64,000 nucleotides of DNA from a virus (lineage: Duplodnaviria; Heunggongvirae; Uroviricota; Caudoviricetes), in the IMG/VR virus record IMGVR_UViG_3300020045_008999, positions 160,001 to 224,000 of that record. The stretch is one strand, 5' to 3'. Positions 25,501 through 45,304 of the stretch are shown piece by piece. A program made the translations under genes and the position numbers. The notes under the pieces were generated by a model that searched no databases, had not been told where the DNA came from, and saw nothing but the letters and a program-made list of their open reading frames with translations. Positions within the stretch are counted from its first letter, which is position 1. Each line of letters opens with the position of its first letter.

Positions 25501-25855
25501 TAACGTCCGGTTACTATACGAGGTTGTTGCCGAATTAAAAACCGACCACACAAACACAAACTAATACTTAAAATTATGACTGGTATTTCAAAAAATTCCG
25601 AATTGCAACAATCTTGTATAACCGCTGTTATGCCTCGTTTTTTTGTCGATGAGCGAAATGGATGTATAGCAATTAGAGATAGAAATCATCCCGATTTTGA
25701 TATTGACCATCAAGGACTAGATGCAGATTTACCCGATGTGGTAGATTTTAAAATGGGTGAGCAAATTAAATTTTCAAATTTTGTAACTTGGGATTTAGCC
25801 CCTGAAATAATTTTAGATTTTAATTCTCGTTGTGCTTTGTTAAATGAGGCATAAC
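25501..25855 (+). mobile_element. attC-like site plus gene cassette (ORF 25576..25854)
   Basis: Imperfect inverted repeat TAAC(25501)...GTTA(25627-25630); cassette ends GTTATGCCTCGTTT 25627-25640 and AAATGAGGCATAAC 25842-25855 are complementary. Confidence 0.65.
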
Positions 25856-26325
25856 TTGCTCATAGCATTCCAGTGAACGATGCAAGTTCAAGTAATATCA
25901 AATAAAGACTGATCAATGAACATAGAAACTATCTTTTGTGACAATTATTTCCCACCTACTTATATTTTCTGTTTGAAATGGAAAGATGGTAGTTATCAGA
26001 ATAGGACACAATATGTGTGTAATGAATCAAAGTCACCGTATGGTAAAGAATACGTTGGTGTATGGAATGTGACTTATAAGAAACTAAATCCTAATTATTA
26101 TTGTGATGGACAGCGTGATATATAAGAATCGTTTCAAATTTTGGTCTATACAAACCTTATTAAATAATTAATAATGAAACAAATGAGCAACTATTTCAGA
26201 CGACTATCTAACGTGTGGTTAGGGTCGACAATTTTAGGTAAAATATGCATTAGTATTATATTTCCAATTTGGTTACTTGCTGGATTTAATTCGGCATGGG
26301 ATGATTAACAGTTTTGTACTAATTA

Positions 26326-26357
26326 TTTGGTTATTGTACTGAAATGTATTACATTTG
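26326..26357 (+). promoter_or_regulatory. Bacteroidota sigma promoter
   Basis: TTTG-N20-TACATTTG. Confidence 0.7.
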
Positions 26358-28095
26358 TCTGGTATACTGATTTTAAATACTATATTGAAATCATAAAGAC
26401 GCGATTAATTAACGTCCATCGCTACAATTTCGACTTGTGGTAAAAAGCAAGGTGTTTCGGATGAGAAACAGTAATTAAAAATGAATTTATGGCAAATATC
26501 TATGATTTACACGACCATCCTTGCGTTAAAATTGAAAACATAATCCATATTACAATTTCGGCAACTAAAACAATGTGTGGTAAAGAGTGGATTTATTCGC
26601 CAACCATCGAAAGATTTAAAAGAACAAAAGTAAAAACATTAAAGTGGGTAAGTCCGGATAAAATTAATTGTCAAAAATGTATTGATGCTTATGGAAATGA
26701 AAAAGCAGTTGATTTTTAGAAAAAAAGCAGTTGATTTTTAAAACGATGGTTGTGACAATATCGCCTAACTATCTTATGTTAGTGGTATTAAAAAAATAAA
26801 TTATGAAAATATATCCAGTTGAAATACAAATTGGTCAGAGAGTTATTAAAAGTAATAGCTTTCAATCTTTTAGAGTTATTGACAAAATAAAAGAAACACC
26901 AAAAACAATAACATTTCTCGTAAAATATTATAAAGGTGATATACGTTGTCATGGTGATTTTATTGAAAAAGAAGTAACATTTAGAAAATCTACAATAGTT
27001 GAAAGTAGAGAAGATTTTATCGGGACTAAATTTAACCAATTATATAAAATAAAACCCGAAAGACTAAAAGATGTTATTAACCGAGGATTTGAATTGTATA
27101 GAGTAAAGGCAAAACAAACATATAGTTGGGGTGATGATGGTTTGAGAATTGGTGATTATATGTTTGCAATGTTTAATGGTATCAACTATGAGACCGAAAG
27201 TATATTAGATGATGGTACCGTTAATGTAATACCACCATCAAAAAATTCAGACAAACCTAAATTATCTGGTTGGAGTAATAATAATGGCGGATTCGAGGAT
27301 TTTTATGAAAAGATAGATATGAATATTATTTTAAACACTAATGAACCGTGTCCCACAACGGTGGGAAGCGATAGTGACAAGGATGTTAAATTCACTCTTA
27401 ATACTAAAGAGGTTAGAAAATATTTAGAAAGTAAAGGATTTAAAGGCCTTACTTTTTTCCAAGGTGGTAAGTTTATTTATGCGTTTATATCTATAAGAGC
27501 AAACGTAAATCACCAATGGAAAGAGAAAGATTATTCCACCTTTAATGAGAATGATAAAAATAGACTGTCTTTCTTAAATCAAAGCGATTGTAGTTATGAT
27601 GAATTCAAATACTATATTGAAAACCTAAACTAGGGATTCCTTAATTATACTATGTTAGTGGTATTTTAAAAAAATAAATTATGCTGAATAAATTTAAAAT
27701 TGAAATAATCGATAATCAAGTTGGCAATTTTTTCCAAATCAATCTATATAAGTGGAAGAAAGTTAATAAGTGGTTTCAAATAGCGAAATTTGACTGGTGT
27801 ATTGAGTTTAGACACATTTTGGGTAAAAATTATAGGTGTCCAGAGATTTCACAAAAACGAATAACCATTGAACAGTATTTCGAAAGAGAGGTCCAAGACG
27901 AATTAAATCGCGATGGCATAGAAGAAGTACATAGAATTATAATTGCTGCATCATAATGAGGCAGGTTTTTTAAATATACACTTAAATACAACACTAAATA
28001 CAAAGAGAGATTGGGTAAACCGGTCTCTCTTTTTCCGTTACTGATCATTTTCGATTCAATTTTGGGATTTTCCCCTATATAAAAACGGTTATTTG

Positions 28096-28127
28096 TTTGG
28101 TAATTTGGTTCAAATACACTACATTTG
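28096..28127 (+). promoter_or_regulatory. Bacteroidota sigma promoter
   Basis: TTTG-N20-TACATTTG; implies true start of ORF 28093 is the ATG at 28150. Confidence 0.7.
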
Positions 28128-28603
28128 TTTTATACTAAAAACCTCTATTATGGAAACGTTAGCATTTTTTAAGAAGTATTGTAAGTTAAAGGGACTTGAA
28201 ACCAAGTATGCATTTGGACATATCCATGGTGAGACTAAGAGTTTGGTTTTTATGAATGGCGAAACTACGGAACATTTGGAATACTTGGGAACCAATGTAC
28301 GGGATGGTATTTTGTATCGGGTATCACCGGCTACTTGTGGCTATGGTGAGGACGGGAGTAACAAGTGTACTATAGGCAAACCTAACCCGGCCTGTATGGG
28401 TGGTATTTATTCCAAAAATAAATGTGCTATTTATTTTCATACTCCGATTGATTTGGAAACGTTTCGATATGATTTGAATATGGAGGAGTTTCAATTACTG
28501 AGTCTCAACCATGAGTAGGAAGTAGTCGAAGAATTGTAGAAAATGGGGTATATTATCAAAATCGGAAGCGCATTGAATCAATTTACCGAATATTTGTTTA
28601 ATC

Positions 28604-29002
28604 ATGGACGTAGGGGAAATATATAATTTTTGCATCAAACACCATATTAGTAATTACACCATTAATTCAGATGGGTTTATAGATGTGATCGGGTCAGTTA
28701 TTTTAGGTACAGAAGATGGAATAGAAGATGGGCACCTACCAGATGGAATTCGTTTTGGGTATGTTAGTGAGAGTTTCAACTGTACGTGGGCTTCCCTGAC
28801 CTCACTTAATGGATGTCCTTTGGTGTTGGGTGGTATTTTTTGTTGTTACTATGGATTTATGGATTGGACGGATGAGAACTTTGATGTTCTGTATCGTTAT
28901 AACTATTCCCAGCTGAGAATTAATAGTAATTTCAAGTTGGGATATGATAGGTATTGTAAAATAAGGAAGCGTAGGGATATTATTAATGAATTGCTCCGGT
29001 GA
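28604..29002 (+). CDS. LRR family B protein
   Basis: ISNYTINSDGFIDV N-cap, degenerate repeat, tail RKRRDIINELLR. Confidence 0.85.
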   Translation: MDVGEIYNFCIKHHISNYTINSDGFIDVIGSVILGTEDGIEDGHLPDGIRFGYVSESFNCTWASLTSLNGCPLVLGGIFCCYYGFMDWTDENFDVLYRYNYSQLRINSNFKLGYDRYCKIRKRRDIINELLR

Positions 29003-29006
29003 TATA

Positions 29007-29038
29007 TTTGGAAAAATCGAATAAAATTATTACATTTG
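29007..29038 (+). promoter_or_regulatory. Bacteroidota sigma promoter
   Basis: TTTG-N20-TACATTTG. Confidence 0.7.
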
Positions 29039-29293
29039 AATACTAATCGTAAATTAAATACAAATGAAAACAGAAACTTCGAAAAATAATGATGCAAATC
29101 CGGATCGCTCAATGGATTCAGATCAAGCATTTATTGACATTAACTACACATTTAATGCAATTGCAAATCAAGACAAGAGTAATAGTTGGAAACTGGATGA
29201 ACTTAGACTAATACTAAATCAGTTACAGAAGACTCAATTTGAAAACGGCATAAAAGCTGGATTTAGAAAAGGGATTAAACTACTTACGGACCA

Positions 29294-29481
29294 GGACATA
29301 AACAACCTTTAAATAAAAGTAATATGGATATGAAAAATTTCATCACTGAGAAAATGAATTCTGGTGGATTGACCGTAGCAATATCCGGACATAAACAACC
29401 TTTAAACAAAAGTAATATGGATATGAAAAATTTCATCACTGAGAAAATGAATTCTGGTGGATTGACCGTAGCAATATCCGG
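29294..29481 (+). repeat. 93-bp tandem duplication covering leader and start of ORF 29324..29950
   Basis: 29294-29386 and 29387-29479 differ at one base; duplicates MDMKNFITEKMNSGGLTVAISG. Confidence 0.9.
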
Positions 29482-29950
29482 TCAGGTGGCTGCCTTATGC
29501 GATGAATATAGACTAATGAAATCATCGGATCACTGCAGTATTATCACTGGTGAATTTGGCCGTTTGGGAAGTTTAAACATTAAAGAACTTAGTGCTGATT
29601 GCCAAGAGCTTGTATTCAAATATGAGAGTGGATCATATGACTATGTATCGACCAGAACCAATTCATCTACAAATATACTCTGGACTGATTATCAAGACAT
29701 CGAACCTTACAACCGCCAGGGTGGGTTGTACGCAGACGGGGCCTCATTTAAAAGTTTGGGTGCGCCAGTTTTAGAAAAATCGGATTGCCGAGAATTTCAC
29801 GCTACGCATGTTTACCAGGGCAATATAAGTTTTGCGGTTTGGGGGTTTCGTTTTAATGATTTTTACAATTCCATAAATTTTGGCATTTGCATAAAAACGG
29901 ATCAGGTGGGTGTATTCATTACTCGTCTAAGACTTATTATAGGAAAGTAA
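29324..29950 (+). CDS. Hypothetical protein with duplicated N-terminus
   Basis: ORF track. Confidence 0.75.
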   Translation: MDMKNFITEKMNSGGLTVAISGHKQPLNKSNMDMKNFITEKMNSGGLTVAISGQVAALCDEYRLMKSSDHCSIITGEFGRLGSLNIKELSADCQELVFKYESGSYDYVSTRTNSSTNILWTDYQDIEPYNRQGGLYADGASFKSLGAPVLEKSDCREFHATHVYQGNISFAVWGFRFNDFYNSINFGICIKTDQVGVFITRLRLIIGK

Positions 29951-30229
29951 ATAATTCTTTAAAACCGGTAAATATGAGTTTATTAATGTATGCGAACAAC
30001 ATGGCCTTTTGGATATTAAAGTATCGAAAAGAGTTGACCACATTTGAGGAATTCAAATCGAGGTCTAAATTTACACTTACCAGTCAATGGAATGCTGCTA
30101 TGTTCACTACTATGGTTAATGATGGAATCAATGATGATTTGACTTCTATTGCTCAATGGGTGCAAAATAGTTTGGATAAGGATGGTCATGATGAATCGTA
30201 TTACATAAACGACTAAAAAATAAATACCA

Positions 30230-30616
30230 ATGTATAATGATTTGGTTATTGATTTTCTTGATAATAATGAGATCTCAAATTACGTGATTAATTTGGATGG
30301 CACTATCGATGTACATGGTAGGGTTATGTTATATTCTTATAGTGGTATTGAATTACCCTCTTATATACAATTCGGCAAAGTATTAGGAAATTTTTCATGT
30401 TCGTGTCTTAATATAACATCTTTGGTTGGGTTCCCACTACACATTGGTGGTTATTTGATGTGTTATTTCGGCAAGATAGCACCGAGTTATGAGAATTTTG
30501 AAATTTTACACCGGTATTCGGGTTGTTTGTATATTGAACCAGAATTAGATGTGTTGTACCAAAAATACTGTAGGATGAAAAAACGTATGGGTAGTATAGA
30601 TGAAATCATCTATTAA
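30230..30616 (+). CDS. LRR family B protein
   Basis: ISNYVINLDGTIDV, FGKVLGNFSC, tail KKRMGSIDEIIY. Confidence 0.85.
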   Translation: MYNDLVIDFLDNNEISNYVINLDGTIDVHGRVMLYSYSGIELPSYIQFGKVLGNFSCSCLNITSLVGFPLHIGGYLMCYFGKIAPSYENFEILHRYSGCLYIEPELDVLYQKYCRMKKRMGSIDEIIY

Positions 30617-30619
30617 CTA

Positions 30620-30651
30620 GTTGTAAATATGGGTTGAATATATTACATTTG
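30620..30651 (+). promoter_or_regulatory. Bacteroidota sigma promoter
   Basis: GTTG-N20-TACATTTG. Confidence 0.7.
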
Positions 30652-31053
30652 AACCCCAGCTAAACATAAATATGGATCCAAACAAGAAAATGATTTACGA
30701 TAAGGTTTATGCCCATCTGAATGCGGATGAATCAACTGCTAGTAAATTAATTGCGAGACACTTTCGCTATGCGTTATTAGATAAGGCGATAACTGATCAA
30801 GAGTATGATTATTACTTTAAGTCGGGTGATGATATTGCCTTGGTAATGAATAATAGGCATGTGTTATGTTTGGGTGACGGAATTGATTCATGTGCGTATA
30901 ACACTACTATTGAGTGTGATGTATGTAAATACAACAACACAGCTTTCCCTGGAGCATTGGATCCGGGTGCTACTAAAAATCGTTATAAATAAAACCATAA
31001 GATATATTCAGTCGAACCTTCTTTATCTGGAAATAATTGTAATTAAACGGTGA

Positions 31054-31794
31054 ATGATTATGTATAATAATGACCTAACAACGTGGGATGATCATAAATT
31101 GTTGAAGTTATATAAGCACGCCATGGTATATAGGTATATGTGCTATAAGGATACTTTTGGCAGCTACCACCCTAAATATGAGCACAACTGTGTTCATCTA
31201 GAAGACATAAAGAGCAGCTTTTTTTTCAAACTATACTATCCGAATGAATTGGCTATGTTAGAGCAAATGTGGACTCGTTACATGGATAGTAATTTTCATA
31301 ATAGATGTTGGTGGGAGTCACAGAATATATTCAGTACTCGAATTACATTCCCGCAACCGGCCCTGGATGATGTTGTTAGTGATGTTGTTAGCGATGTTGT
31401 TAGCGATGTTGTTAGCGATGTTGTTAGTGATAGTATAATCATGGATTATATTCACTATAATGGTAACCAGTATATTCTACATGGCAGTGGCAGCAAGCGT
31501 AAGGTTTACTTATCACCGGACGGTACCCATGTAATTAAGGTTGCTATGGATCCTATTGGTTTAGGCATTGGTGAGAATTTATCAGAGTCCCAAATCTATG
31601 CGAGTAACCCGGATTCCATTTACGCCAAATGCGAAATGATAGAGAATGATTGGCTGTTGATGGAATACGTAGAACCGGGATTTTTCACTTCAAAAGACAA
31701 TTTACCCCAATGGACTTTGAGTATTGCCGAACATCAGGTGGGTTACACCCTTTCCGGGAAGTTAGTGGCATATGATTACGGTTCCGATATTTAA
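31054..31794 (+). CDS. Two-domain protein with (DVVS)5 linker and minimal protein-kinase-like C-terminal domain
   Basis: GSGSKRKVY...VIKV...NLSE...LMEYV...LVAYDYG. Confidence 0.55.
   Translation: MIMYNNDLTTWDDHKLLKLYKHAMVYRYMCYKDTFGSYHPKYEHNCVHLEDIKSSFFFKLYYPNELAMLEQMWTRYMDSNFHNRCWWESQNIFSTRITFPQPALDDVVSDVVSDVVSDVVSDVVSDSIIMDYIHYNGNQYILHGSGSKRKVYLSPDGTHVIKVAMDPIGLGIGENLSESQIYASNPDSIYAKCEMIENDWLLMEYVEPGFFTSKDNLPQWTLSIAEHQVGYTLSGKLVAYDYGSDI
31369..31428 (+). repeat. 12-bp tandem repeat x5 (gatgttgttagy)
   Basis: Directly visible; encodes DVVS x5. Confidence 0.95.
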
Positions 31795-32236
31795 TACAAT
31801 TGAAATGGATGATACTACATTAGACATAATTGATTATTTTCTAACTAATAGGTGTATTTGGAACTATGCCTACCCATACGAGGTTACTTCGGATGGTTTG
31901 ATTAATATCCAAGGTGATATTTTGATTACTTCGGTCCCGGATGGTCGCCATCAGATGTCTCATATTAGGTTTGGTAATGTGAGTGGTAATTTACGATGTC
32001 ATGTCTTAGGGGTTGATTCGCGTTCATGGGACTGGTTTCCTAACCAGGTGGGTGGTTGTGTTAGTATTATTTATGATAAAATAAACAATTCTAATTATGA
32101 TGTTTCAATTTTCAATACTTTATACCGCTATAACCTCAGACAGGTTCAGATAAACAATGGGATATCATCAGAATACCTTACATATTATCAGAACCGAAAG
32201 CGTATTGATACAATTAATAAAATATTAGATGACTAA
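31772..32236 (+). CDS. LRR family B protein (probable start 31805)
   Basis: RFGNVSGNLRC, tail RKRIDTINKILDD. Confidence 0.8.
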   Translation: MITVPIFNTIEMDDTTLDIIDYFLTNRCIWNYAYPYEVTSDGLINIQGDILITSVPDGRHQMSHIRFGNVSGNLRCHVLGVDSRSWDWFPNQVGGCVSIIYDKINNSNYDVSIFNTLYRYNLRQVQINNGISSEYLTYYQNRKRIDTINKILDD

Positions 32237-32238
32237 CG

Positions 32239-32628
32239 ATGGATAGAGATGACATTATAACGTTCTGTAAAAGACACAGGATAGCAAATTATAGTATTCG
32301 ACCGGATGGGGTTATTGATGTAGATGGTGATGTAGTTATGTTTGTCGAAACACTGAACTTAGGTGGTATAAAGTTTGGCAATGTAAGTGGTGATTTTTTC
32401 GTTAACTGGTCTAATTTAAGTAGCATGGTTGGGTTTCCGACCTTTGTTGGTAATACGCTTAGTGCGGATTATTGTCACTTAGATAATAGTGATGAAAATT
32501 TTTCTATTATATACCAGTGTGATTGTAAAGAAATGAAATTTACCCACGCTTTTATGGAGGGATATCGGCGGTATCAGGTCAAGCGAATGCGTATTGACAA
32601 TATTAATGACATATTAAAAAACGAATGA
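32239..32628 (+). CDS. LRR family B protein
   Basis: IANYSIRPDGVIDVDGDV, tail RMRIDNINDILKNE. Confidence 0.85.
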   Translation: MDRDDIITFCKRHRIANYSIRPDGVIDVDGDVVMFVETLNLGGIKFGNVSGDFFVNWSNLSSMVGFPTFVGNTLSADYCHLDNSDENFSIIYQCDCKEMKFTHAFMEGYRRYQVKRMRIDNINDILKNE

Positions 32629-33088
32629 AACAGCATGAAATTGCCACGCTATTTATAAAATTAGGGATTATTAAATATGATATAAGGGATGATGGTTTAA
32701 TTGACATCTACCATAGTGTGCCTTTAGACAAAATAATTTATATCCAACGCGAGACACAGCTTCGCATTGGTAGGATCATCGGAGATGTTCATGGAACATG
32801 GTCTACTGAAAATTATGTTGAGAAATTACCATACAGTGTTAGTGGTAATATTTATCTTAAATATGCATCATTGCATGCTACCGATGCGAATTTCGAAGTC
32901 TTATACAATTGTCAATGTAATCAAGTATTAACCACTGGCCAATTTAAAGTTAGGTATGAGGGATACTGTAGAGTGAGAAAGCGAAGTGAAACTATTAATG
33001 ACATATTAAAAAACGAATGAATCAGCATGAAATTGCCACGCTATTTATAAAATTAAGGATTATTAACTATGATATAAGGGATGATGGT
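32601..33088 (+). repeat. 96-bp direct repeat spanning two consecutive gene junctions
   Basis: 32601-32696 and 32993-33088, three mismatches. Confidence 0.85.
32625..33020 (+). CDS. LRR family B protein (highly diverged)
   Basis: YDIRDDGLIDI, tail RKRSETINDILKNE. Confidence 0.8.
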   Translation: MKQHEIATLFIKLGIIKYDIRDDGLIDIYHSVPLDKIIYIQRETQLRIGRIIGDVHGTWSTENYVEKLPYSVSGNIYLKYASLHATDANFEVLYNCQCNQVLTTGQFKVRYEGYCRVRKRSETINDILKNE

Positions 33089-33412
33089 GCAATTGAAATA
33101 AGGGGTGGCATAAACTTATCCACATTATTAAAAATATACCACTATTATCCAACGATCACCATTGGTAGTGTTTCGGGAAATATATATGGTTCAGGGTGTA
33201 CAGAAACCAAACTATTGGGATTTCCATCTCATGTAGGTGGTTTAGTACATCTCATGTACAGTTCACTGGAAGCTACTATTGAAAATTTTGAATTATTGTA
33301 CAAGTGTAATTATTTATCGGTAGTACTCCCACGCTATTTCGAATATGGGTATGTTAGATATTGTAAAATGAGAAAACGAAGTGAGTCTATTGTTGAATTG
33401 TTATATGAATAA
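33017..33412 (+). CDS. LRR family B protein (highly diverged)
   Basis: YDIRDDGAIEI, GFPSHVGG, tail RKRSESIVELLYE. Confidence 0.8.
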   Translation: MNQHEIATLFIKLRIINYDIRDDGAIEIRGGINLSTLLKIYHYYPTITIGSVSGNIYGSGCTETKLLGFPSHVGGLVHLMYSSLEATIENFELLYKCNYLSVVLPRYFEYGYVRYCKMRKRSESIVELLYE

Positions 33413-33465
33413 TATTCTCCAGACCTGATCCAAATCGATGTTGTGAAAACTTTAGAACATTCGGT

Positions 33466-33497
33466 ATTGCTTTTTAAGTTATAATGTTGTATGTTTG
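33466..33497 (+). promoter_or_regulatory. Bacteroidota sigma promoter
   Basis: ATTG-N20-TATGTTTG. Confidence 0.65.
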
Positions 33498-33523
33498 TAT
33501 CATAATAAGTAATACACTGAACT

Positions 33524-33967
33524 ATGGAAGCGATCTACTACACGACAACTGCTGCTGGACAATTGCATTTAGCTGAATTACAATCCCGTATTAAAGATGC
33601 CAAATCTGAAAAAATAATCGTAGACTGTCCCCGATGCAATGGTGAGGGTGGTATAGTTGAATTTGCACATGTATCTAATGGAATTTGTTTTTTATGCAAG
33701 GGTAGTAAACAAACCTATTCATATCGCACGCCGAAACAGCAAAACCTCAACCGTCTTATCAAAGAACAGATCCTAGAATTATCAAAACGTTTGGTTGTTC
33801 CACAAGAAATTATAATTGAATTTGGGACTAACCCAAAGCACCACACACCGATGTTTCATTCTTTTGTGCGCAATTTTATGGCAACCAATGGATTTTTGGG
33901 TGATAGTTATGATTTTCATGACATATTATACAGAATCAATTGCTTGGACCACTTTATGTATGAATAA
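33524..33967 (+). CDS. Protein with DnaJ-type CxxCxGxG zinc finger
   Basis: CPRCNGEG...CFLCKGS. Confidence 0.65.
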   Translation: MEAIYYTTTAAGQLHLAELQSRIKDAKSEKIIVDCPRCNGEGGIVEFAHVSNGICFLCKGSKQTYSYRTPKQQNLNRLIKEQILELSKRLVVPQEIIIEFGTNPKHHTPMFHSFVRNFMATNGFLGDSYDFHDILYRINCLDHFMYE

Positions 33968-33985
33968 TTATCTAACTCAAAATTA

Positions 33986-34432
33986 ATGGAATTGCCAAAC
34001 CCCGGAAGCGACGACCTAATAAAAGAAAGCAACACCGCTTATCATACTTTTGTACATCTAACACTCACTCAATGGGGTGTAAAAGATTACACCATTAATA
34101 CTGATATGACTGTCGATATAAATACTGATGTGTCCTTATTAGGTATACCTAATTTAGAAGTACCATTCCAAATAGGCATCGTGTGGGGTTATTTTTCTTG
34201 TTTGATCTGTGGGTTTGAATCATTCAAGGGATTTCCACGTAAAGTATATGGTACGTTTCGTTGTATTAGTAATGAAATAATACATTCCCAAGAAAATTTT
34301 GATTACTTATATACATTGGAACCATCTAAGATAGATATTGGGGATCGTGGCGACCCGTTTCACGACGCGTACCAACAGTATGTCAAGGGCCGGATGAGAT
34401 GTGATAACATTAATGAAATATTAAACCCATAA
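33986..34432 (+). CDS. LRR family B protein
   Basis: VKDYTINTDMTVDI, SFKGFPRKVYGTFRC, tail RMRCDNINEILNP. Confidence 0.85.
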   Translation: MELPNPGSDDLIKESNTAYHTFVHLTLTQWGVKDYTINTDMTVDINTDVSLLGIPNLEVPFQIGIVWGYFSCLICGFESFKGFPRKVYGTFRCISNEIIHSQENFDYLYTLEPSKIDIGDRGDPFHDAYQQYVKGRMRCDNINEILNP

Positions 34433-34435
34433 CAG

Positions 34436-34843
34436 ATGCAGAAAAGAACAACACCGGAATATATTAGCAACCTACCAAAGAACCACATTTTTGTATTTGG
34501 ATCAAATTTATCGGGAAGACATGGTAAGGGGGCAGCGAAAACGGCTCTGAGATGGGGTGCGCGCTATGGCCGGGCAAATGGTCCACAAGGAAGAACCTAT
34601 GCATTACCAACCAAAGATGCCCAAATTAAGCACGCTTTGTCCATTGATATAATTAGACCATTTGTAGATGAATTCATAGCATTTGCAAAAGAGAATGTCG
34701 GTCTGGTGTTTTTAGTAACCGAAGTCGGTTGCGGTCTGTCTGGTTTAAAACCTAGTGCTGTTGCACCACTATTCATCGATGCCATTGGTGTGGAAAACAT
34801 TCATTTACCGGAACGATTTTGGAATATTCTTAATAAAATATAA
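34436..34843 (+). CDS. Phage macrodomain-like protein
   Basis: IFVFGSNLSGRHGKGAA...YALPT...FLVTEVGCGLSG, a conserved phage macro-like family signature. Confidence 0.7.
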   Translation: MQKRTTPEYISNLPKNHIFVFGSNLSGRHGKGAAKTALRWGARYGRANGPQGRTYALPTKDAQIKHALSIDIIRPFVDEFIAFAKENVGLVFLVTEVGCGLSGLKPSAVAPLFIDAIGVENIHLPERFWNILNKI

Positions 34844-35392: not shown

Positions 35393-35641
35393 AAATCATA
35401 CGTAAGTATGGAAATAGTGCAATGAATGGCACTTTTAAAAATAAAAAAGAACATAGCATGTCAGAAAATTTAAACGAAGCACCCAAAGACTCACAAGTAA
35501 CCGGGGTATTTATTCAATTTCAGGATCGAGGAATGGTGAATATCGCTGATTTATCCAGAGTAGAATATGAAGAATTTTTGGATATGATGCATATGGTCCG
35601 AACATCTTATTTAGTAGCGATAAATCGAACCGAATAATCAT

Positions 35642-36232: not shown

Positions 36233-36454
36233 AAAATATGATGAATAATAAAGAAATTAAACAAGAATGTGACTTAATATACAACGAAATTAAGAGTGCC
36301 GAACAACGACTGCGCAAATTGCGAGACCTTTGTGAGCATGATGATACCGATATTGGAAATTATTCCTATCGAGTTGGGGTTGTTGAGCGCGCAGAAATTT
36401 GTAATTCATGCGGCGAAATCATAAAACGCATGAGTTAATTAATAATGTATAGAT

Positions 36455-36985
36455 ATGACCCAAGAAGAATTAATTCGCGGAATATGTAGTACGTGTATTA
36501 CCGGAACTTATGATCTGGGCCCAGATTTGTCGGTAAATGTAAATGGTTCGGTAAATTTAGCTCATAGAAATTTATTATGTTTGCCTATTAATTTTAATAC
36601 TGTGAGTGGTAATTTTTACTGCGAAGGTAATAGGTTGACCACACTACATGGTGCTCCACACTACGTTGGTGGCGTATTTGATTGTTCCTTTAATAGATTG
36701 ATCAATTTAAATGGATTGCCTAAAGAGATATCTGGTAATTTAATTTGTAGTAATAATTCCTTTATTACATTTGAGGGTATGGACAAATCGATGATCAGTG
36801 GTGATCTGGCATGTTTTGATAATTTCGCATTAAGAAGCGATAAAAGTTCAGATATGATCAATTTTAAAATATTTGATCAATTTATGCCCGCACAAATCTA
36901 CGTCGATCATTCAATTACTGAACGATATAAACAATATTTACGCATTAAAAACCGTATTGACATCATTAAAAATATTTTAAACTAA
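36455..36985 (+). CDS. LRR family B protein
   Basis: FYCEGNRLTTLHGAP repeats, tail KNRIDIIKNILN. Confidence 0.88.
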   Translation: MTQEELIRGICSTCITGTYDLGPDLSVNVNGSVNLAHRNLLCLPINFNTVSGNFYCEGNRLTTLHGAPHYVGGVFDCSFNRLINLNGLPKEISGNLICSNNSFITFEGMDKSMISGDLACFDNFALRSDKSSDMINFKIFDQFMPAQIYVDHSITERYKQYLRIKNRIDIIKNILN

Positions 36986-37391
36986 ACAACACGCATATGG
37001 ACAATATGGACAAAATATTAACAAACGAAGCTTATATATCCTTTTCAAATTGGCTTATTCATTCAGATTGTGCAACGCGTTGCTGGGGTGGGTTAGGTAA
37101 TGGTAATGATAATGGTGGCATTGGTTTTGAATTTTTACCAGAAGAATTCCAAGTTGAAATGCTCATTATGTGGTTTGATGCAATGGAAATATTCATTGGT
37201 AGTGAGATTTGTTTCGATAGTGGATCACAATATGTTCGTGGGTTTGATGCATCCGTTTGGTCGAGTACTATTATTTTGGTCGAGAGTATATCCGGATACA
37301 ATAACCTAGATGTGTATCAAAGTCGTTTGGAATCCAAAAAGGACGCAATTGTATATGCGAATAATTACTACAATACCATTAAGTCTAAGCG

Positions 37392-37931
37392 ATGAAGATC
37401 AATCGAAGTACCATCATACACAAATGTCTTAGATATAACATCAATAATTATTCAATAAATTTAGATGGTTCGATTGATGTGCATGGTGATGTAAATTTAT
37501 TTCAGATTAAATTAGAAAAACTACCATTAAATTTTGGTAAGGTCAGTGGTAATTTTTCATGTGCATTTAATAAATTAACTACACTAGAGGGTTCCCCGGT
37601 TACGGTGGGTGGTTTTTTTGATTGTTCCTATAATACGTTAACATCCTTGGAGGGTGCTCCACATACAGTGGGACGTTTTTTCGATTGTAGTATGAATAGT
37701 TTGACAAATATATTAGGTGGACCCACATTAGTTCGCGATGAATTTAAACTTTCGAAACTATTTGATGGGACACATGTTAGTATTGATGACAATTATGCCT
37801 ATTTATATGATCTCATGTTGCAAAATACTGATATTTTTTTCAGAAGCCAGCCCATGCGTGATTATTTCATAAAATATGTCAAAGCCCGTAAAAGACTAGA
37901 TGTGATAAAATCAATTTTGGATACGGATTGA
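37392..37931 (+). CDS. LRR protein with family-A-like repeats and family B tail
   Basis: FSCAFNKLTTLEGSPVTVGG repeats, tail RKRLDVIKSILDTD. Confidence 0.88.
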   Translation: MKINRSTIIHKCLRYNINNYSINLDGSIDVHGDVNLFQIKLEKLPLNFGKVSGNFSCAFNKLTTLEGSPVTVGGFFDCSYNTLTSLEGAPHTVGRFFDCSMNSLTNILGGPTLVRDEFKLSKLFDGTHVSIDDNYAYLYDLMLQNTDIFFRSQPMRDYFIKYVKARKRLDVIKSILDTD

Positions 37932-40458
37932 TTCTAATACAATCATCGATATTATATCAATTTACACATAGATAAAAAACATTGAATTGAAATGCAATTT
38001 TTAGAAATAAAAATTATATATTTGTTAAAAAAAATCACATGAATAGTTATACGAAAGAATTTGTACACAATGGTCAACGCTTTAGCATTATTGTAAACTT
38101 AAACACTAAAGTTGAAAAACGAATAAATGGGGACCGATGGCATACCATTCAGTGCAACAACACAGGGCCAGGGAACTATTATGAAAAAATAGAAGTGTTA
38201 GATGCTAATTTAGAAAAATCAATAATGGATATAGAGTCCAGTGCCAAGGCGAGTGTTGATAAAATCTTGCCTAACGAAACTGAACAAGAAATCTTATTAA
38301 AGAAATTGGGATTTAAATAGTAAATTATGAAAATAGCTAAACAAGATATTCAAATAGGGATGCAGTTCGCACTGACTGAAAATTCCATAAATGTATTCAA
38401 TTATGATCCTAGTGGATATTATTCAATGGACAATGCAGTTGAAATATTTTCATCAGTTGGCAATATTTCGATTACGTCATTAGTGTATAGGAATAAAGGA
38501 AATGGTGACATGATTCGTTTCAATATTTCTAATTCGCCAAAAGAATTCACTACATGGTGGGCAGCATTTAAGAGAAGTACTAAATATGTCCCAACGGATT
38601 CAATCATATTGAACCCGGTAACAAAAATACCCAAATTGAAAAAGACAAAATGGTCGGAGATGCAAGCAGCCCGATTAGGTGCCCCGGGATACTACATTGA
38701 GTATTATGGAAAACCTAATGAGTATCCAAGCGAATATTCAGTGATTTACATCGGTGTTGGAAAATGCAGATACATTCATTATAATTCGCCACCTAATCGT
38801 CAAGATTGGGCATCTCTTTTATGGTCTTGTGCCCCGACAAAGCGCAAAATCAATACATCAATTACCGATATAGAAAACGTGATATATCGATATCACTTTT
38901 TCGAAACACATGAAGATTTGATTAAATATAAAGGAATTTATCATAAACCAGGTGCAATGATACCGGTAGTCGAATAATTTATGGAGTTCAAACCTAAATA
39001 TGGCAACAGTACCAAACCTTTACAATATGACTTGGAATCACTTGTAGAGGATTCATACTATCGCATCAATGACACCAAAAAAATTCTACAATGGAATGGT
39101 GTTGAATTTCTCAAACCTTTGAAAGACCAACAAGGGCGATATGGTAGTTGGTTGGAACGAATAGAATCGCAGCCAAATGTTAAATTCGTACAAGAAGTGG
39201 ATCTATTAGAACTCTACTTATGATTTATCTAATTACCGTAGAAGCTAATTACGATCATCTTGAAATTGAATTTCTGGCAAATTTTGAAATCATTGCAGAC
39301 ATTTGTGAAAGTACTAATGCATCAAGGGGTACTATTGAGGCTGAGCTTACTAAATATAATCCGGACATTTATACCGTATTTTCATCGTTTATACATCTAA
39401 AACAACGAGGATATGTAGTGCTTCATACTCGATCAGTTTCGTACTTTAATAATGCGGTGTGGAAACCTGATTTAAGTTACATGCTAATAAATACCGACAA
39501 TTCGGCGATAAAACCGTTATTTCGAAAAAAAATGATTGCGGAAATACTTAAATAAATTACATTCGTATTATATAATTGTATATATTTGTAGAAAATATTA
39601 TATTATGAAAACATTATATTATAACGAAATAGGGAATGCGATCTCGGATTATATGGTATCCAAATGGTTGGATAATTTCCTCAGTGGTGATGCATCCCAT
39701 GTTTATTTCTCATCTGCTATCGTATTGGATGAACTTCGCGCTCGAATTAAGGAGGGTAGTATCGCTCATGATGCGGTGTGTATTGATATCGATGGTAAAG
39801 AATTCTTCATTGATTCAGATGGTAGATCGAGTGATTGGGACAACTGTTCGGAATTGTTGGTTCATGAGCGCATAATGATGCGTTTATTTTAGCTTTAATA
39901 TTGATGAGAAATACTATAGACAAAAGTCGTATATGCATAGGATCGCGTTTAAGAATTTGGAGCAGTAAGTATCAATGTGAGAAAGTAATTACAGTAATTC
40001 ACATACGGTTAGTCGTGATTTTCTTTTTGTATGATAATGATCCGGAAGAAGATTGGTTACCAATGGGAAGTTATATAATAGAAACTGCTACATTCGAGTA
40101 GTATAAATCACTTATTATGATAAAAGTTATAATTAAAGTAGAAACCGATTCCGATTTCACCTTATCATTTCCTAAAAACATCACCGGATTTTATGATATA
40201 AAATATGATGGTAATTATTTTATAAAGATATGTTACGAAGAAAAAAACGCGCTGGATGGTTTAGTTGCACTATTAAGTGAAATTGAGATTAGTTCGTGTA
40301 AAGATTGGCACAGTGCTGATTTGAAAAAGGGTATAAGTGGTTACATCAACCAACTAAACACATTGGGACTTTCTAGTTCAATCTATGATTTAATAGGTGG
40401 TGGTAATTGGTCATTCACTATTGATGTTTTGAGAATAACCGAACAATACGTAACAGCA

Positions 40459-40793
40459 TAACGCTTTACTGACAAACGAAGGTAGTTATTTGATACAAAA
40501 TAATCTTTAAATTAATCTAAAAATGAAAATATTCTTCGCATTCAAGGCCCAAATAATTGTTTATGTGGTGTTAGTTGTAGTACTTTCTGCTTGTAGAAAT
40601 TCAGATAAAAAATATCCAAGCGAAACTTCAAAATTTATCGTTACCAGAATAGAACCTAACACATTTGCCACAAGTATTTATTTGTTGGAACCAATTGATA
40701 AACAAGACTTAAATATGAATCATACTTGGATAGTTGATAGTATTGGTAAATTTACCGCTGGCGATACGCTGTCTTTTCAACATTATCGCTAAC
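40459..40793 (+). mobile_element. Degenerate attC-like site plus cassette encoding a putative lipoprotein (40523..40792)
   Basis: GCATAAC at stop of 40117..40461; inner arms tagttatttg / caaataattg; GTTAG 40570; cassette ends GCTAAC 40788-40793; lipobox-like VLSAC. Confidence 0.45.
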
Positions 40794-41927
40794 ATACACG
40801 GTTTGTTTTTCGACTGTGCAATAAATCAAATACAAGATGTTCAATAAATTGAACACAGATGGAAAGCTGGAAATCATAATTGGATAGTTGATAATATTGA
40901 AATAATTAAAAAAATAAATATGTCGAAAATTAAAGAAGAGCATCTAGTGTTCATGACGGATGATATGTATACACCTATATCATACAAAGGAGTGTCTGTA
41001 AGTCCACCATTATACAAAGGAAATGGTGAGCATAGCGTTCGTGATTTAGAAAAAATTTGTAACCAATACAAAGAATACGTGAGTCAGCAGCAAATAATTA
41101 AGCAAAATTGCATGAAACATATTGTTGAGCTTAAATTTGGAATTAAATTCGAATCTAATGACCATTGATATGGAATTTATAGGCACAACCAAATATCAAC
41201 ATGCCGCTGTGTTGCGGAATAATACTAGGCGAAGTATTATGTTGTATTTCGTCAATGGTATTCAAATTTTCAAAGAGAAGATTCCATTTGATGAAAATTA
41301 TGAACAAGGTACCGGTAAATGGGTTTTTACAAACGTATACCTATTAAATGGGAAGTTGTACCAAACCAGATCCAATGATCGGTGGTGTAATCATACATCT
41401 ACCTACATAATAAAATCTAGAGATGTTAAATTTCCATTATCAAAACGGATATTAGAACAGGTAAATATACCAGTCGATTTGAAAATAATCTTCAAGAAGT
41501 AATTATTCGATAAAAGTAAGTTACATACATGATAATAATCGCTATAGTGCGTAATTGTACATTACCACTTACCCAGAATGGACTTGAGATGATTATGTCC
41601 AGCATCAATCTGATAGATATTGATATATTAATGGAAATTGATTCAGCACTAGGAATGACAGATGATAAAGATGTAATTAATTTTTTTAGAAGTCGTGGTA
41701 TTAAACATTTTCGCGATTCATATATCTCATACTTAAATCGGTATGGTGTTGTTCAATTGTATTCCGGAAAATTGGCATTACAACCTATAGTGATTGTCGA
41801 TTGTATGCATTCTAAATTCAGACATATTGAAAGACTTATTTCTATTCGTAAAATTTTAAGTAGCTAATAAATTAATATTTTTTTCACAATATAAACCCTT
41901 GTAAAATTTTACATAATATTTACATTA

Positions 41928-41962
41928 AAAAATAGGAAATTATAAACTAATTTCCTATTTTT
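41928..41962. promoter_or_regulatory. 15-bp inverted repeat overlapping a -7 box (operator-like or terminator)
   Basis: aaaaataggaaatta / taatttcctattttt overlapping TATTTTTG 41956-41963. Confidence 0.55.
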
Positions 41963-43894
41963 GTATTTATATAAACCACTTTTCTCATGACACAGATCGA
42001 AATTAACTTAATGAATTTAAAACAAGTTGGAATAATAGATTTCGTATCTACATTAGATTGGATGGACCCATATTTGGATGTATTGAAAAATGATGAGTTG
42101 GGTGAAGTATTTCCGGTTTTCCCAGAACGAATTTACGAATGGGGAACCAAAGAATACATTGCTTCATTATCAATTTCGTGTTTCTTTGGCACCAAATCAT
42201 TGGATAGAGAAATTGCTTTCAGTGCACAATCCAGACTTAATTACAACATTGTCCGTTGGACAGAACTTTAACATGGAAGTATCTGAAATACAAACTATCT
42301 TGGTGGGTCAGTTTACCGAATATTCATTTCGGGTCGTAAATGATGATCATAGTTATATCAATTACATTGCATTAGTAACTAAATATGATTTGAGGACCTA
42401 CACTGTTTCATTTATAGGATTGGAATGTATCGAACTTAATTTCGAAGATGACTACAGGGCGGCACACCAGTATGCAATAAATTGTATTACTGCAGCAAGA
42501 AACACTTAGATGAAGAATCCTTAGGGATGTAGAAGTATTAAAAAATCATAACTCATATAAATCTCACACAGATGGCAACCAACCAAAGAAATCAAAAGTG
42601 CATCGATACTATAAAAGAATCGCTAAAATCAAGATTCAACATCTCTTCTGATCGAGATTTATTAGTACAACTGGGAATTAAACCAGAGGATAAAGAAAAA
42701 TTATTCTTGTGGATTAAATACCAAAATGCATTTTCATATGCTGAGGGATATGAAAACGGACAAGAGAATTTGAAATTTGAAATTAATAATCAAATTGGCG
42801 ATTTGCTTAAATCCGAACGAGATTATTTTTAACATAATTCTATACTAAAACAACTGTTTAATTTTAATATAAACTAATGACTAATCCAATAATAAATAAT
42901 AGAATAGTATCATCCAAAACGTTCGCAGTTCGTTTTAAATCATTTGTCGAAAGTGTGACGGTACAAGATGCATGCGGCGAAGATGAAAAAGAAGCAATGT
43001 TAAATGTTGCCAATTCGTTATTAGTTTATCAATTACACACTATTGATGCTAATGATACGGAAGAGACTGAATATTTAGAAAGAATCGGGATATACCCATT
43101 ACTACCAATATTAGTAACTCATGATGGTGTAGAATTACATGCGAGTGAGACTGGTGCGATGGTATATTCTAGTATGATCATCCCAAGACTGGGTGATGAA
43201 GTACGCCAGCACACGGTAAAAAATTCGGATGATATTAAACGAATTAATCCAAAACGAATTATTTTTTGGAATAAAAAAGAGGCGGAATCTTATATAGAAT
43301 TCAACACTAAATCCATTTCAATACAAGATTTAATTAATGCTAATTTATACCAGGCATATGAGCAATCCAAATCCAAAGGACATTAAATACTTAGGGGTAC
43401 CCAATGTTTGCTTTTCACTTATCGATGCCAATGATAAACGCGATGAATTGTATGCTAACCAAAGAATTGATAGAGGGTTTGACGATAGTGAGACATGGTC
43501 ATTGTCTGGAACAATGGCATCTTTTTTGTTACCAAGACTAATCCGTTTTATAAAATTGGATAATAGTGTTAGAGATGCTGAATTTATGGAAGACTTGAAT
43601 AATTTTAGAAAATTATTAGAGTTAGAAATTCGAGATAATGGTGCAAGAAATTTTACAATAGAAGAAAAAAATACAGTATCCAAAGGACTAAAGGCATTTG
43701 AGAAAATATTTTTATTATTGTGGTGGTAGAAATTAGGTTATTTCCCTAATTTATATTAGATTTGTGTATAGTTTAAAAATCAGAAAATGAGCAATGTAGT
43801 AAATCACAAAGAAATATTTATAAGTGCATTATATGTATCACCAGAACAGGTGAGACATTATTTCACAAATGGTCATATAAAAGTATAATCAAAA

Positions 43895-44015
43895 GAGAAT
43901 TTTATAAAGTGATGCTGGATTTATTCGTCAGGGTTTATACAGATGCAAGTAGCTTTTTGATAACGATAAGGTAGCTATAGATGCCTATGGGTCGGTTCGA
44001 TTCCGACAATTCTCA
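43895..44015 (+). ncRNA. tRNA-like RNA with expanded central region
   Basis: Acceptor GAGAATT 43895-43901 / AATTCTC 44008-44014; T-arm GTCGG-TTCGATT-CCGAC 43991-44007; 89 nt between, with no canonical D or anticodon arm. Confidence 0.6.
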
Positions 44016-44548
44016 CTATTAAAAAATATAAAGTATGTTTATAATACAAGTAATTGTTTTGCTCGCGATCATATTATATGTGGTGGGAAGTTGTATAAAT
44101 ATAATAGATAATCACATACCTGAATCACGTACTAGTTTAAACGCGGATCTTATGTTTAATATTGTGGGTGCAATATGCATATTTGTATTACTTTATTTCT
44201 GTGGTGCCTTTGATCAAATTTTTCCAAAAATTCACGTGTTATGAAATCCACCACAGCTATGATAAAATATATAGTAAAATTGCATATGACTTCCACACAA
44301 GATTGTGTAAGACCTTACGTAAAAGAAGTTGTTAAAGAATCGCTAAAAGAAGCGAGAATTTTAATCAAAGACTTAAAAGTAGATTATAAAAAAGCATTCA
44401 ATATACACCAATTAGGATTTGAATATGATTATGATGGAGTTGAGAATAAAGTTTATAAAGTCATTTCAAAAACTATTGAATACGTTGGGTTAAATGACGT
44501 ACCACTAGATACTATAACTAATACACAAATAACTAATACATAAATGTT

Positions 44549-44974
44549 ATGATTAATAAGCTGGAAAAATTGAAAGCATTTGACTTAGAACGAAAAGTAA
44601 TTTGTTCTGTGTTATCTATTGAATTATCGAGTTTGAATGGTCGCAATTTGGGAAATGTAGAACTGAACAATGGTTTGGTGACTTTTTACAAAAATTATAC
44701 CAAAGGGGATTGTGTGTTGTTGGAATTCACCGGTTATCAAGATTCAGATAAAGAAGATATTTATGATTCTGATATATTGGTCGGGGATGACATAATTTAT
44801 TTAGTGCAATGGAATCAAAACCAAACTAGTTGGTGGCTATCACCGATCCAATCACGATCTGGAGTAGATGAGATGATTTATGTAATTGACAATCAGACAC
44901 TTGGGAATGGGTATTTATCTCGCCGAGATTTAACTAAAATTGGTAACAAATATACCCATGCACATTTATTGTAA
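44549..44974 (+). CDS. YopX-like phage protein
   Basis: KLKAFD...LLEFTGYQDSDKEDIYDSDIL...KIGNKY matches the YopX pattern (QYTGLKDKNGKEIYEGDI...VIGN). Confidence 0.7.
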   Translation: MINKLEKLKAFDLERKVICSVLSIELSSLNGRNLGNVELNNGLVTFYKNYTKGDCVLLEFTGYQDSDKEDIYDSDILVGDDIIYLVQWNQNQTSWWLSPIQSRSGVDEMIYVIDNQTLGNGYLSRRDLTKIGNKYTHAHLL

Positions 44975-45010
44975 CAACACTCACCGGTATAACGGGTGGT
45001 TGGCATAAAC

Positions 45011-45304
45011 AACGTCCTGTGGCTTTGTCTTGTGCCGAAAAAAATAAGACCTAATATTTAAATTAAAAACTATTATGCCAAGTACAAAACAAAATGAAAA
45101 TTTAACCGAAAGTGACAATAAGTCAAAACCACTGTTATGTGAGGTTATTACTTTAAAAGTAATGGATATATGGCACCCATTTATAAAAAATAGTCAACGA
45201 TGGGTTTACTCAAATGAATTTGAATCAACAACCGAATTTATAAATTGGGTAATGCAGCACCAAAAAGATTTATCAGGAGTGGTTCGTGGGTAATCTCACA
45301 TAAC
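45011..45304 (+). mobile_element. attC-like site plus gene cassette (ORF 45075..45293)
   Basis: AAC gtcct GTGG c TTTG t CTT ... AAG t CAAA a CCAC t GTT(45134); cassette ends GTTATGTGAGGTTA 45134-45147 and TAATCTCACATAAC 45291-45304 are complementary. Confidence 0.65.

Follow-up and report, generated by a model that had tools for sequence, protein, structure and literature searches.

Do two small genes in a phage genome, each preceded by a hairpin resembling an integron attC site, represent mobile gene cassettes, and if so, what type of recombinase would move them? The question arises from a 64-kb window of a 597-kb megaphage genome, to which all coordinates given here refer unless marked as genome positions. 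An initial annotation of the window reported attC-like cassettes at three places and attributed them to recombination of the IntI type. Integrons are the textbook means of trading single genes and are thought to be rare in phages. The attC site of an integron lies 3′ of an open reading frame (ORF) that has no promoter of its own and depends on the platform promoter for expression, and IntI is a tyrosine recombinase with an integron-specific extra domain. Two of the three places, 25500-25855 (locus 1) and 45009-45304 (locus 2), withstood closer analysis and, judging from sequence comparisons, each probably carries one mobile gene cassette of an integron-like system that is found in Bacteroidota phages and prophages. 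The third place is not supported, and recombination of the IntI type is not shown.

Loci 1 and 2 each consist of a hairpin, a short ORF and a pair of complementary arms (Table 1). From 5′ to 3′, hairpin H1 is composed of NTAACG, 4 unpaired nt, a 4-bp stem, a 1-nt mismatch and a long bulged stem, followed by an A-rich loop that includes the start codon, the right arm and CTGTTAT. A bulged inverted repeat running from AAC to GTT, with the ATG in its loop and the ORF reading through the right arm, was recovered at both loci as first described. Codons 1-17 of the cassette 1 ORF come from the H1 loop and right arm, and for cassette 2, H2 together with the 5′ arm encodes the leader of the protein (MPSTKQNENL...KPLLCEV). 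The reported complementarity between the 14-nt end of the gene and the bases after GTT is also present at both loci. The stop codon (TAA) of the cassette 1 ORF is inside its own 3′ arm, and the right end of this cassette is TAAC. Neither ORF belongs to a Pfam or PHROG family, and the hairpins 3′ of the two cassettes fold no better than shuffled sequences. The window hairpins are 19.5 kb apart and solitary, with TAAC on both sides of each insertion, and the cassettes do not form a CALIN (two or more neighbouring attC sites with no integrase).

Table 1. Hairpins, reading frames and complementary arms in the 64-kb window.
Feature	Position	Strand	Description
Hairpin H1, attC-like site	25500..25631	+	TAAC to GTTA; covariance model R1, 84.9 bits
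Cassette 1 ORF, 92 aa	25576..25854	+	ATG in H1 loop
Cassette 1 5′ arm, GTTATGCCTCGTTT	25627..25640	+	pairs with 25842-25855
Cassette 1 3′ arm, AAATGAGGCATAAC	25842..25855	+	13/14 with 5′ arm, G:T at position 11
Hairpin H2, attC-like site	45009..45138	+	TAAC to GTTA; covariance model R1, 91.1 bits; ATG 45075 in loop
Cassette 2 ORF, 72 aa	45075..45293	+	start in H2 loop
Cassette 2 5′ arm, GTTATGTGAGGTTA	45134..45147	+	pairs with 45291-45304
Cassette 2 3′ arm, TAATCTCACATAAC	45291..45304	+	13/14 with 5′ arm, G:T at position 11
Possible decayed hairpin copy (weak third place)	40458..40574	+	covariance model, 17.6 bits

The inverted repeats of the window might be chance matches in AT-rich DNA, and by our own estimate, at the base composition of the window, 64 kb should contain about ten inverted repeats that match at 13/14 positions within 250 nt. 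However, loci 1 and 2 each have a hairpin detected by the model, the same mismatch position and shared flanks: AACCNCTGTTATG and CATAACTT co-occur in the window only at these loci. H1 and H2 (E about 1e-14) are its sole strong matches to the covariance model when filters are off. The same anatomy is found hundreds of times elsewhere, compared with 1% in controls. The probability that chance accounts for the repeats is practically nil, and for loci 1 and 2 chance is refuted. Folding of single DNA sequences recovers the full hairpin for H1 only (z -2.8), and the support for H2 therefore comes from the covariance model and from covariation. The third place, whose E value is 0.03 when 5 kb is searched and 0.4 over the window as a whole, is not significant alone, and the ends of the ORF that follows its hairpin pair at only about 9 of 14 positions. 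It is at best a decayed hairpin copy, and may be a chance match. Motif matches at genome positions 291199, 299357, 412332 and 426409 are inside long coding sequence and were rejected as chance occurrences.

H1 and H2 belong to a widespread hairpin family that corresponds to no family in Rfam. The covariance model identifies 10-15 hairpins per Baltic Flavobacterium siphophage, within about 5 kb and hence in CALIN arrangement, and about 10 in the megaphage. A strict pattern finds at least 120 stretches in Bacteroidota genomes and at least 120 in IMG/VR. The hairpins are 62-133 nt long and run from TAACG to TGTTA, with AAC and GTT invariant, a one-sided 4-nt spacer, bulges in the left arm and strong covariation. 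Their core boxes, GCATAAC and GTTATGC, match the attC consensus (RYYYAAC and GTTRRRY) at only 6 of 7 positions. Compensatory changes are seen at 10 of the 16 pairs in the seed alignment. Among 150 model matches, in a model-fitted alignment that leans towards the structure of the model, 94.1% of cells are paired (75.4% in shuffles), double-change cells number 405 (107.5 in shuffles, with 405 reached by none of 500), and the covariation score is 0.492, compared with 0.01-0.08 when partners are slid.

Each unit contains one hairpin, at its left end and 5′ of the cargo, and the hairpins are always on the same strand as the genes. In 154 of 410 units (38%), the hairpin includes the ATG and about 16 codons, and the loop is A-rich, as is typical of Bacteroidota translation starts. 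No ORF crosses the TAAC boundary, and stop codons are within the 3′ arm. Where pairing is defined as a downstream 14-mer ending in TAAC with at least 9 of 10 positions paired, the unit ends pair in 473 of 857 cases, compared with 8 of 857 when the arms are shuffled. Position 11 of the arm is non-Watson-Crick in 470 of the 473 paired units (G:T in 412), and the arms covary between homologous cassettes. A refined count found position-specific G:T (433) and C:A (269) with no general excess of wobble pairs, which identifies conserved mismatches and does not itself prove which strand folds. A strand-bias test by crude arm alignment was noisy and was set aside.

The closest relatives of the window cassettes show the same hairpins and arms in other contexts. 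H1 closely matches the hairpin that precedes gp009 in Flavobacterium phage snusmum6-1 (92-95% identity) and L214:9190-9319 (93%). Across 21 kb of the megaphage, H1 is the sole stretch with similarity to a phage in GenBank. The 5′ arm of cassette 1 recurs in snusmum gp009 and at genome position 30993 (minus strand), where the bodies are unrelated. The body of cassette 1 has a homolog in contig L012 (57% aa identity), with homology beginning at GTTATG and stopping at CATAAC. Relative to cassette 1, the L012 arms include a compensatory change from CCTC/GAGG to CCCC/GGGG and are still paired although the hairpin is absent. L012 also encodes a Xer-like recombinase 2.4 kb from the homolog but has no hairpins, and therefore provides little information on linkage between the two. 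H2 is 80-88% identical to hairpins of more than 20 IMG/VR phage contigs. The leader type of cassette 2 is joined to other bodies in L239, L252 and L240, and in the first two the arms, GTTATGTGATGTTT and AAATATCACATAAC, covary relative to those of cassette 2. Both the presence of the same cassettes elsewhere with junctions at the AAC and GTT points and the swapping of N-terminal leaders had been anticipated, and the former is seen between genomes while the latter is evident from one hairpin-encoded leader type fused to unrelated gene bodies. Neither the cassette 2 protein nor a 276-aa protein neighbouring a window cassette has a relative in IMG/VR. No close relative of the megaphage with an unoccupied site was found, and no recombination, circle or empty site was seen for the window cassettes; the unoccupied sites are predicted to be GGTGGTAAC/TTGCTCATAG and CATAAACAAC/TTCTAAATAAC, where the slash marks the junction, as it does below in ATAAC/G, TAAC/G and TAAC/TAYTATATGTA. 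At genome position 282789, joining the flanks yields a frame of just 24 codons, and restoration of an ORF start by excision is therefore not convincing there.

Rearrangement of units is seen in nine siphophage genomes that are >99% identical in their shared parts, with units differing in presence, absence and order. Unit 7 is found after units 16, 5 or 6, and unit 5 before units 10, 6 or 7, and at these switches the sequence changes exactly at ATAAC/G. Other mosaic junctions are located at the right foot (before GTTA) and, once, within a 5′ arm, and the same hairpins with their arms are found with unrelated bodies, so that one fixed cut cannot explain everything. Shuffling of this kind might also be a by-product of homologous recombination between repeated hairpins, with no dedicated recombinase involved. 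The hairpins would then have a regulatory function at the RNA or DNA level, for example as a stabiliser or terminator between genes that also presents a translation start. The precedent is the PeSL of T4-type phages, a sigma-70-type early promoter with a terminator stem-loop that forms mobile regulatory cassettes (PMC2839356, PMC4122927), flanks orphan ORFs and gives minicircles without a dedicated enzyme (PMC2839356). A regulatory function is in keeping with the constant co-orientation of hairpins and genes, with the 38% of hairpins that contain an ATG and about 16 codons with an A-rich loop, and with wobble pairs that are G:T on the coding strand, and the virulent siphophages that are richest in arrays have neither a tyrosine recombinase nor a Y1 transposase. 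However, PeSL crossovers arise by homology and map to different points within the element (PMC2839356), whereas the junctions here are fixed at the single point TAAC/G rather than scattered over a repeat of ~130 nt, the two ends of a cassette are complementary to each other, and the arrays are linked to a tyrosine recombinase. Homologous recombination also leaves unexplained the pairing of the first and last 14 nt across up to 1.3 kb, the retention of a mismatch rather than a pair at position 11, and the 11 different cassettes that abut a non-homologous site before the recombinase gene. It is considered an improbable sole explanation, roughly a one-in-several prospect, and a regulatory role may exist alongside mobility.

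The recombinase gene of the relatives predicts a Xer-like tyrosine recombinase of 267-271 aa and is located downstream of the array. At all 12 loci with this gene, the TAAC of the last cassette abuts a conserved TAYTATATGTA site about 55-80 nt before the gene. Of these loci, 8 are viral contigs selected for their hairpins, with the junction ahead of the gene and the gene in matching orientation; the other 4 were selected solely for the recombinase, and all of them have the same junction and a hairpin cassette. At least 11 distinct terminal cassettes sit on the conserved site. In the Flavobacterium columnare chromosome, the recombinase gene (L273:7001-7804) is in the middle of the phage, with the cassette array on one side and an S49-family peptidase gene on the other, and the site is therefore not a prophage-end attP. 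The recombinase was detected in only 13 of 240 fetched stretches, although these are short. It scores 130.5 bits against TIGR02249 (integron integrase; cut-off 265), with the match in two stretches, and 185 bits against NF040815, and source annotations call the protein XerD. IntI-type recombination, as originally inferred for the window, is not shown: this enzyme is Xer-like and below the integron-integrase cut-off, the hairpins are 5′ of the cargo, and no integron integrase is involved. The observation that the window contains no integrase was correct and extends to the megaphage genome, where no IntI-type integrase was found. Neither the megaphage nor the Baltic siphophages encode a cognate recombinase. 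The only tyrosine recombinase of the megaphage (genome 108068-108697, 37.6 bits) is not a member of the 267-aa family and has neither an upstream TAYTATATGTA site nor an adjacent hairpin. Without a cognate enzyme, the megaphage has solitary cassettes whose movement would depend on an enzyme in trans.

A different enzyme would be required if the units were MITE-like elements or single-strand transposons that depend on an HUH transposase (IS200/IS605-type) or another transposase that recognises a subterminal hairpin and cuts after the tetranucleotide TAAC. An imperfect hairpin beside a fixed tetranucleotide that is present at both unit ends, the apparent strand bias, and solitary megaphage insertions with TAAC on either side are all in keeping with such elements. 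IS200/IS605-type elements encode a Y1 HUH transposase and have subterminal hairpins at both ends. Here, there is one hairpin per unit, at the left end only, the gene that co-locates with the arrays is a tyrosine recombinase, and six-frame searches detected no Y1 transposase (PF01797) in the megaphage, in three siphophages or in contig L012, making transposition of this type very unlikely.

In the preferred model of cassette recombination, a unit consists of the hairpin, the 5′ arm (GTTA-N6-G), the cargo and the 3′ arm (T-N6-TAAC). We infer a circular form in which the 3′ arm, hairpin and 5′ arm would fold, on the single coding strand, into one long imperfect hairpin marked by a G:T pair at the foot, the 4-nt one-sided bulge and a C:A mismatch, with further G:T pairs within GTTG/CAAT and at arm position 11. 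The 267-aa Xer-like recombinase is the presumed catalyst and would cut at or within TAAC. Strand exchange with another hairpin, or with TAAC/TAYTATATGTA just upstream of the recombinase gene, would lead to excision, insertion and reordering of cassettes, much as IntI acts on attC and attI. The hairpin often provides an A-rich translation start and about 16 leader codons, and cargo moved onto another hairpin would have its N-terminus swapped. For the megaphage cassettes, the enzyme could be supplied by a prophage or a co-infecting phage.

The proposed system, as read from its sequence, has the geometry of an integron with the cargo inverted. Features in common with integrons are imperfect hairpin sites of about 60-130 nt with AAC/GTT feet, a one-sided unpaired spacer and bulges; a cassette start whose complement is found on the far side of its site; many unrelated cargos, including phage DNA methyltransferases, on one site type; and many arrays or single cassettes without an enzyme. 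The arrays also end on a primary (attI-like) site beside the recombinase gene in 12 of 12 recombinase-bearing relatives, a site that is absent from the megaphage. In contrast to integrons, the cargo follows the hairpin on the coding strand and often takes its start codon and leader from it, the recombinase gene is downstream of the array, the complementary ends span 14 nt with a fixed G:T at position 11 (the integron core is 7 nt), and the junction, read on the coding strand, is at the AAC side of the hairpin.

The proposed system may also resemble Xer/dif elements. A dif-type site is 28 bp, with two 11-bp arms around a 6-bp centre, and is acted on by a Xer-family recombinase. CTX-type phages integrate at dif via a folded single-stranded hairpin, and the pdif modules of Acinetobacter plasmids form arrays bounded by inverted arms. 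The cassettes would share the Xer-family enzyme, the proposed folded single strand with an unpaired centre and, as in pdif, inverted arms bounding the modules; the cassette junction, with an arm ending CATAA, about 6 central nt and then TATGTAAAT, is presumably dif-like. They differ in having one dedicated, element-encoded recombinase gene rather than the host XerC/XerD, and long hairpins with conserved mismatches in tandem arrays in phage early regions.

We lean towards the broader interpretation that Bacteroidota and their phages possess a second integron-type system, largely missed by standard tools, in which a 267-aa Xer-like enzyme that lacks the IntI-specific domain acts on long folded hairpins, each placed ahead of the cargo and donating a translation start and leader, and in which virulent phages without the enzyme, including the megaphage, share a cassette pool with cargo such as anti-restriction methyltransferases. 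If correct, this parallel system, common in phages and prophages of Flavobacteriia, would explain the exchange of small accessory genes, for example methyltransferases, even by virulent phages. It would also be a second, independent model for folded-single-strand recombination, with many natural examples of one site type with differing cargos that bear on the unsolved origin of cassettes. Movement of a cassette would rewrite N-termini as well, since start and leader are encoded by the hairpin, and no report of such an effect was found in the literature on classical integrons compared here.

Classical integrons are almost absent from Bacteroidetes (PMC9024848), and DNA methyltransferases set the host range in Baltic Flavobacterium phages (PMC7077304). 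A CALIN in one Polaribacter phage was described by Qi et al. (2023; PMC9892861). The sole precedent for recombination by an integrase is P12002L_attC2, a site of the methyltransferase-carrying CALIN in Polaribacter phage P12002L, for which IntI1 mediated recombination with attI1 in E. coli (PMC9892861). Covariance model R1 has no match in P12002L. By eye, short TAACG...TGTTA hairpins with the same plan are located between its methyltransferase genes.

The IMG/VR virus record that holds the window is 596,785 bp long, with completeness judged 98%, and the window itself (G+C ~32%) carries small ORFs in one shared orientation across 21-58 kb. Cassettes 1 and 2, first recognized in the initial annotation, were described there exactly to the base. 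In both, the 14-nt ends are matched at 13 of 14 positions, the sole mismatch being G:T at position 11, and an imperfect hairpin running from TAAC to GTTA lies 5′ of the end-paired ORF. The start ATGs of the 92-aa (cassette 1) and 72-aa (cassette 2) ORFs are in the hairpin loops, as had been claimed. The flanks AACCNCTGTTATG and CATAACTT are common to the two cassettes and co-occur in the window at these loci only. A weak third locus proposed at the same time (40458-40574) was not upheld, scoring 17.6 bits with the covariance model described below (E 0.4 over the window) and having ends that pair poorly. Between the YopX-family gene and the hairpin of cassette 2 (H2), GGTATAACGGGTGG...GGCATAAAC (44975-45010) looks like remnant cassette ends from past events. 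YopX is also cassette cargo in a Flavobacterium columnare array (L273:4971-5378).

Cassette features in the window and in the whole megaphage genome (G000).
Feature	Location	Strand	Details
Cassette 1 hairpin (H1)	window 25500-25631		
Cassette 1 end pair	window 25627-25640 with 25842-25855		GTTATGCCTCGTTT with AAATGAGGCATAAC
Cassette 2 hairpin (H2)	window 45009-45138		
Cassette 2 end pair	window 45134-45147 with 45291-45304		GTTATGTGAGGTTA with TAATCTCACATAAC
YopX-family gene	window 44549-44974		PF09643
Array of three hairpins	G000 585465-586720		~350 nt spacing
Third hairpin of that array	G000 586169-586299		clean arms GTTATAGCTTGTGG / CCATAAGCTATAAC, 418 nt apart
Solitary hairpin cassette	G000 30993-31121	-	5′ arm GTTATGCCTCGTTT as in cassette 1; hairpin and body differ
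Solitary hairpin cassette	G000 98900-99029	+	
Solitary hairpin cassette	G000 282789-282915	+	
Solitary hairpin cassette	G000 425788-425915	-	

Comparison of 21 kb of the window with GenBank phages gave one 130-bp match only, namely H1, which is 94.6% identical to DNA preceding gp009 of the 39 kb Flavobacterium siphophage snusmum6-1. The hairpin, leader and both arms of the two units are alike but the bodies are entirely unlike. A homologue of the cassette 1 body in IMG/VR contig L012 (57% aa identity) has a different leader; homology starts at GTTATG and stops at CATAAC, and the arms differ from those of cassette 1 by the compensatory change CCTC/GAGG to CCCC/GGGG. H1 and the hairpin in a further stretch, L214, are alike with different arms, the junction falling at the right foot. 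Unrelated bodies are found behind matching hairpin and arms, which we take to parallel the use of one attC type with many cargos in chromosomal integrons. On the reverse strand of L240 (~343-900), an H2-type hairpin is fused to cargo resembling an HNH/NUMOD4-type homing endonuclease.

Signs of movement come from nine Baltic siphophage genomes that are >99% identical over their aligned parts. Divided at TAAC|G, these genomes break down into units that differ in presence, absence and order; one downstream unit was found behind three different upstream units, and one upstream unit before up to four downstream units, with the switch exactly at ATAAC|G. Junctions were located at the GTT/AAC points, some of them at the right foot of the hairpin, so that one hairpin has different arms; one falls within a 5′ arm.

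The leftward early operons of these siphophages are packed with such elements. In the hairpin, NTAACG is followed by 4 unpaired nt, then come a 4-bp stem, a single mismatched nt and a long stem bulged on its left arm; a variable A-rich loop leads into the right arm and CTGTTAN. Mismatches are also conserved within GTTG/CAAT (G:T) and just past the 4-bp stem (C:A). An alignment of 24 sequences has 16 consensus pairs, 10 with compensatory changes, and no matching family was found in Rfam. The covariance model built from it finds 10-15 hairpins in each siphophage, confined to the early arm and always on the strand of the genes, and ~10 in the megaphage, only two of them in the window. In 150 further matches, an alignment fitted to the model and hence biased toward its structure, 94.1% of cells are paired (75.4% in shuffles) with 405 double changes (107.5 in shuffles; reached by 0 of 500), and the signal collapses in slid-partner controls.

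A strict pattern covering one hairpin subfamily (~6 chance matches expected by our own estimate) is present in at least 120 stretches of IMG/VR and at least 120 of a species-genome collection. The latter are nearly all Bacteroidota (Flavobacterium, Chryseobacterium, Kaistella, Chitinophagaceae, Sphingobacteriaceae and others), often with several per 8 kb. At 857 hairpin-like sites from these loci, the 14 nt from GTTA were compared with a downstream partner ending in TAAC, and pairing at ≥9 of 10 variable positions was found in 473, versus 8 with shuffled arms. Of the 473 pairs, 470 lack a Watson-Crick match at position 11; 412 are G:T there, and for the 55 A:C cases the simplest reading is the opposite strand of arrays. 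Median cassette length is 541 nt, stop codons lie inside the 3′ arm, and no ORF spans a TAAC boundary in the units examined. The hairpin contains the start ATG in 154 of 410 distinct units (median leader 16 codons). These data are compatible with an RNA-level role of the hairpin in presenting the start codon, and such a role and mobility may coexist.

Neither a Y1 transposase (siphophages, megaphage, L012) nor a tyrosine recombinase of any kind (siphophages) was found. With a 271-aa Xer-like recombinase of L012 as probe, 13 of 240 fetched stretches proved to carry a relative. Where these stretches are viral contigs, the gene is at the downstream end of the array in the orientation of the hairpins, and the TAAC of the last cassette is followed directly by TAYTATATGTA (the primary site), AACACTAATAAAA and the ATG. 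In a reverse test, four members picked on protein similarity and length of contig alone all had a hairpin cassette whose TAAC abuts the primary site ~55 nt before the ATG, and at least 11 different terminal cassettes were seen there. The family (at least 2,848 relatives, named XerD by the sources; 267 aa in almost all members) has PF00589 and an N-terminal SAM_4 domain, and scores below the integron-integrase cut-off. In the F. columnare chromosome the gene lies between a seven-hairpin array and an S49-family peptidase gene, which speaks against an attP at a prophage end. On the strand that places the hairpin before the body, the arrangement has the geometry of an integron (hairpin-body-hairpin-body-primary site-integrase), but with inverted cargo. 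In L263 (3609-4600), the recombinase frame past the primary site stops after ~35 codons and a different, longer integrase-like frame is next; the cassette recombinase gene seems broken. At least 12 hairpin cassettes lie in a chromosomal stretch (L071:666-1883 with L071/L105; Flavobacteriaceae MAG contig CAWEUV010000004.1, 680-696 kb) that terminates close to a 405-aa integrase of ordinary prophage type, not of the 267-aa family.

No copy of the 267-aa family was found in the megaphage. Its one tyrosine recombinase (G000 108068-108697), a divergent 209-aa protein (PF00589, 37.6 bits) overlapping an upstream 112-aa ORF, was rejected as the cassette enzyme, its context being unrelated with no hairpin or TAYTATATGTA site nearby. 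This leaves the two cassettes of the window solitary, and if this reading holds, their movement would require an enzyme provided in trans. Neither a circular form nor an unoccupied site of either one was seen.

Classical integrons are almost absent from Bacteroidetes according to IntegronFinder 2.0 (PMC9024848), and the hairpin elements go unmentioned where the Baltic phages were described (PMC7077304). In phages, Qi et al. 2023 identified 17 CALINs, including one in Polaribacter phage P12002L with two methyltransferases, of which one attC recombined with attI1 under IntI1; Xer, Flavobacterium, 14-nt arms and the primary site are not mentioned (PMC9892861). Short TAACG...TGTTA hairpins lie between the P12002L methyltransferase genes and are missed by the covariance model. 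The nearest phage analogue is the PeSLs of T4-type phages, which differ in that they recombine through homology, at points that vary (PMC2839356). Some 24 paralogous ORFs of ~180-350 aa each, arranged head-to-tail on the minus strand, occupy the left third of the window (371-20596).
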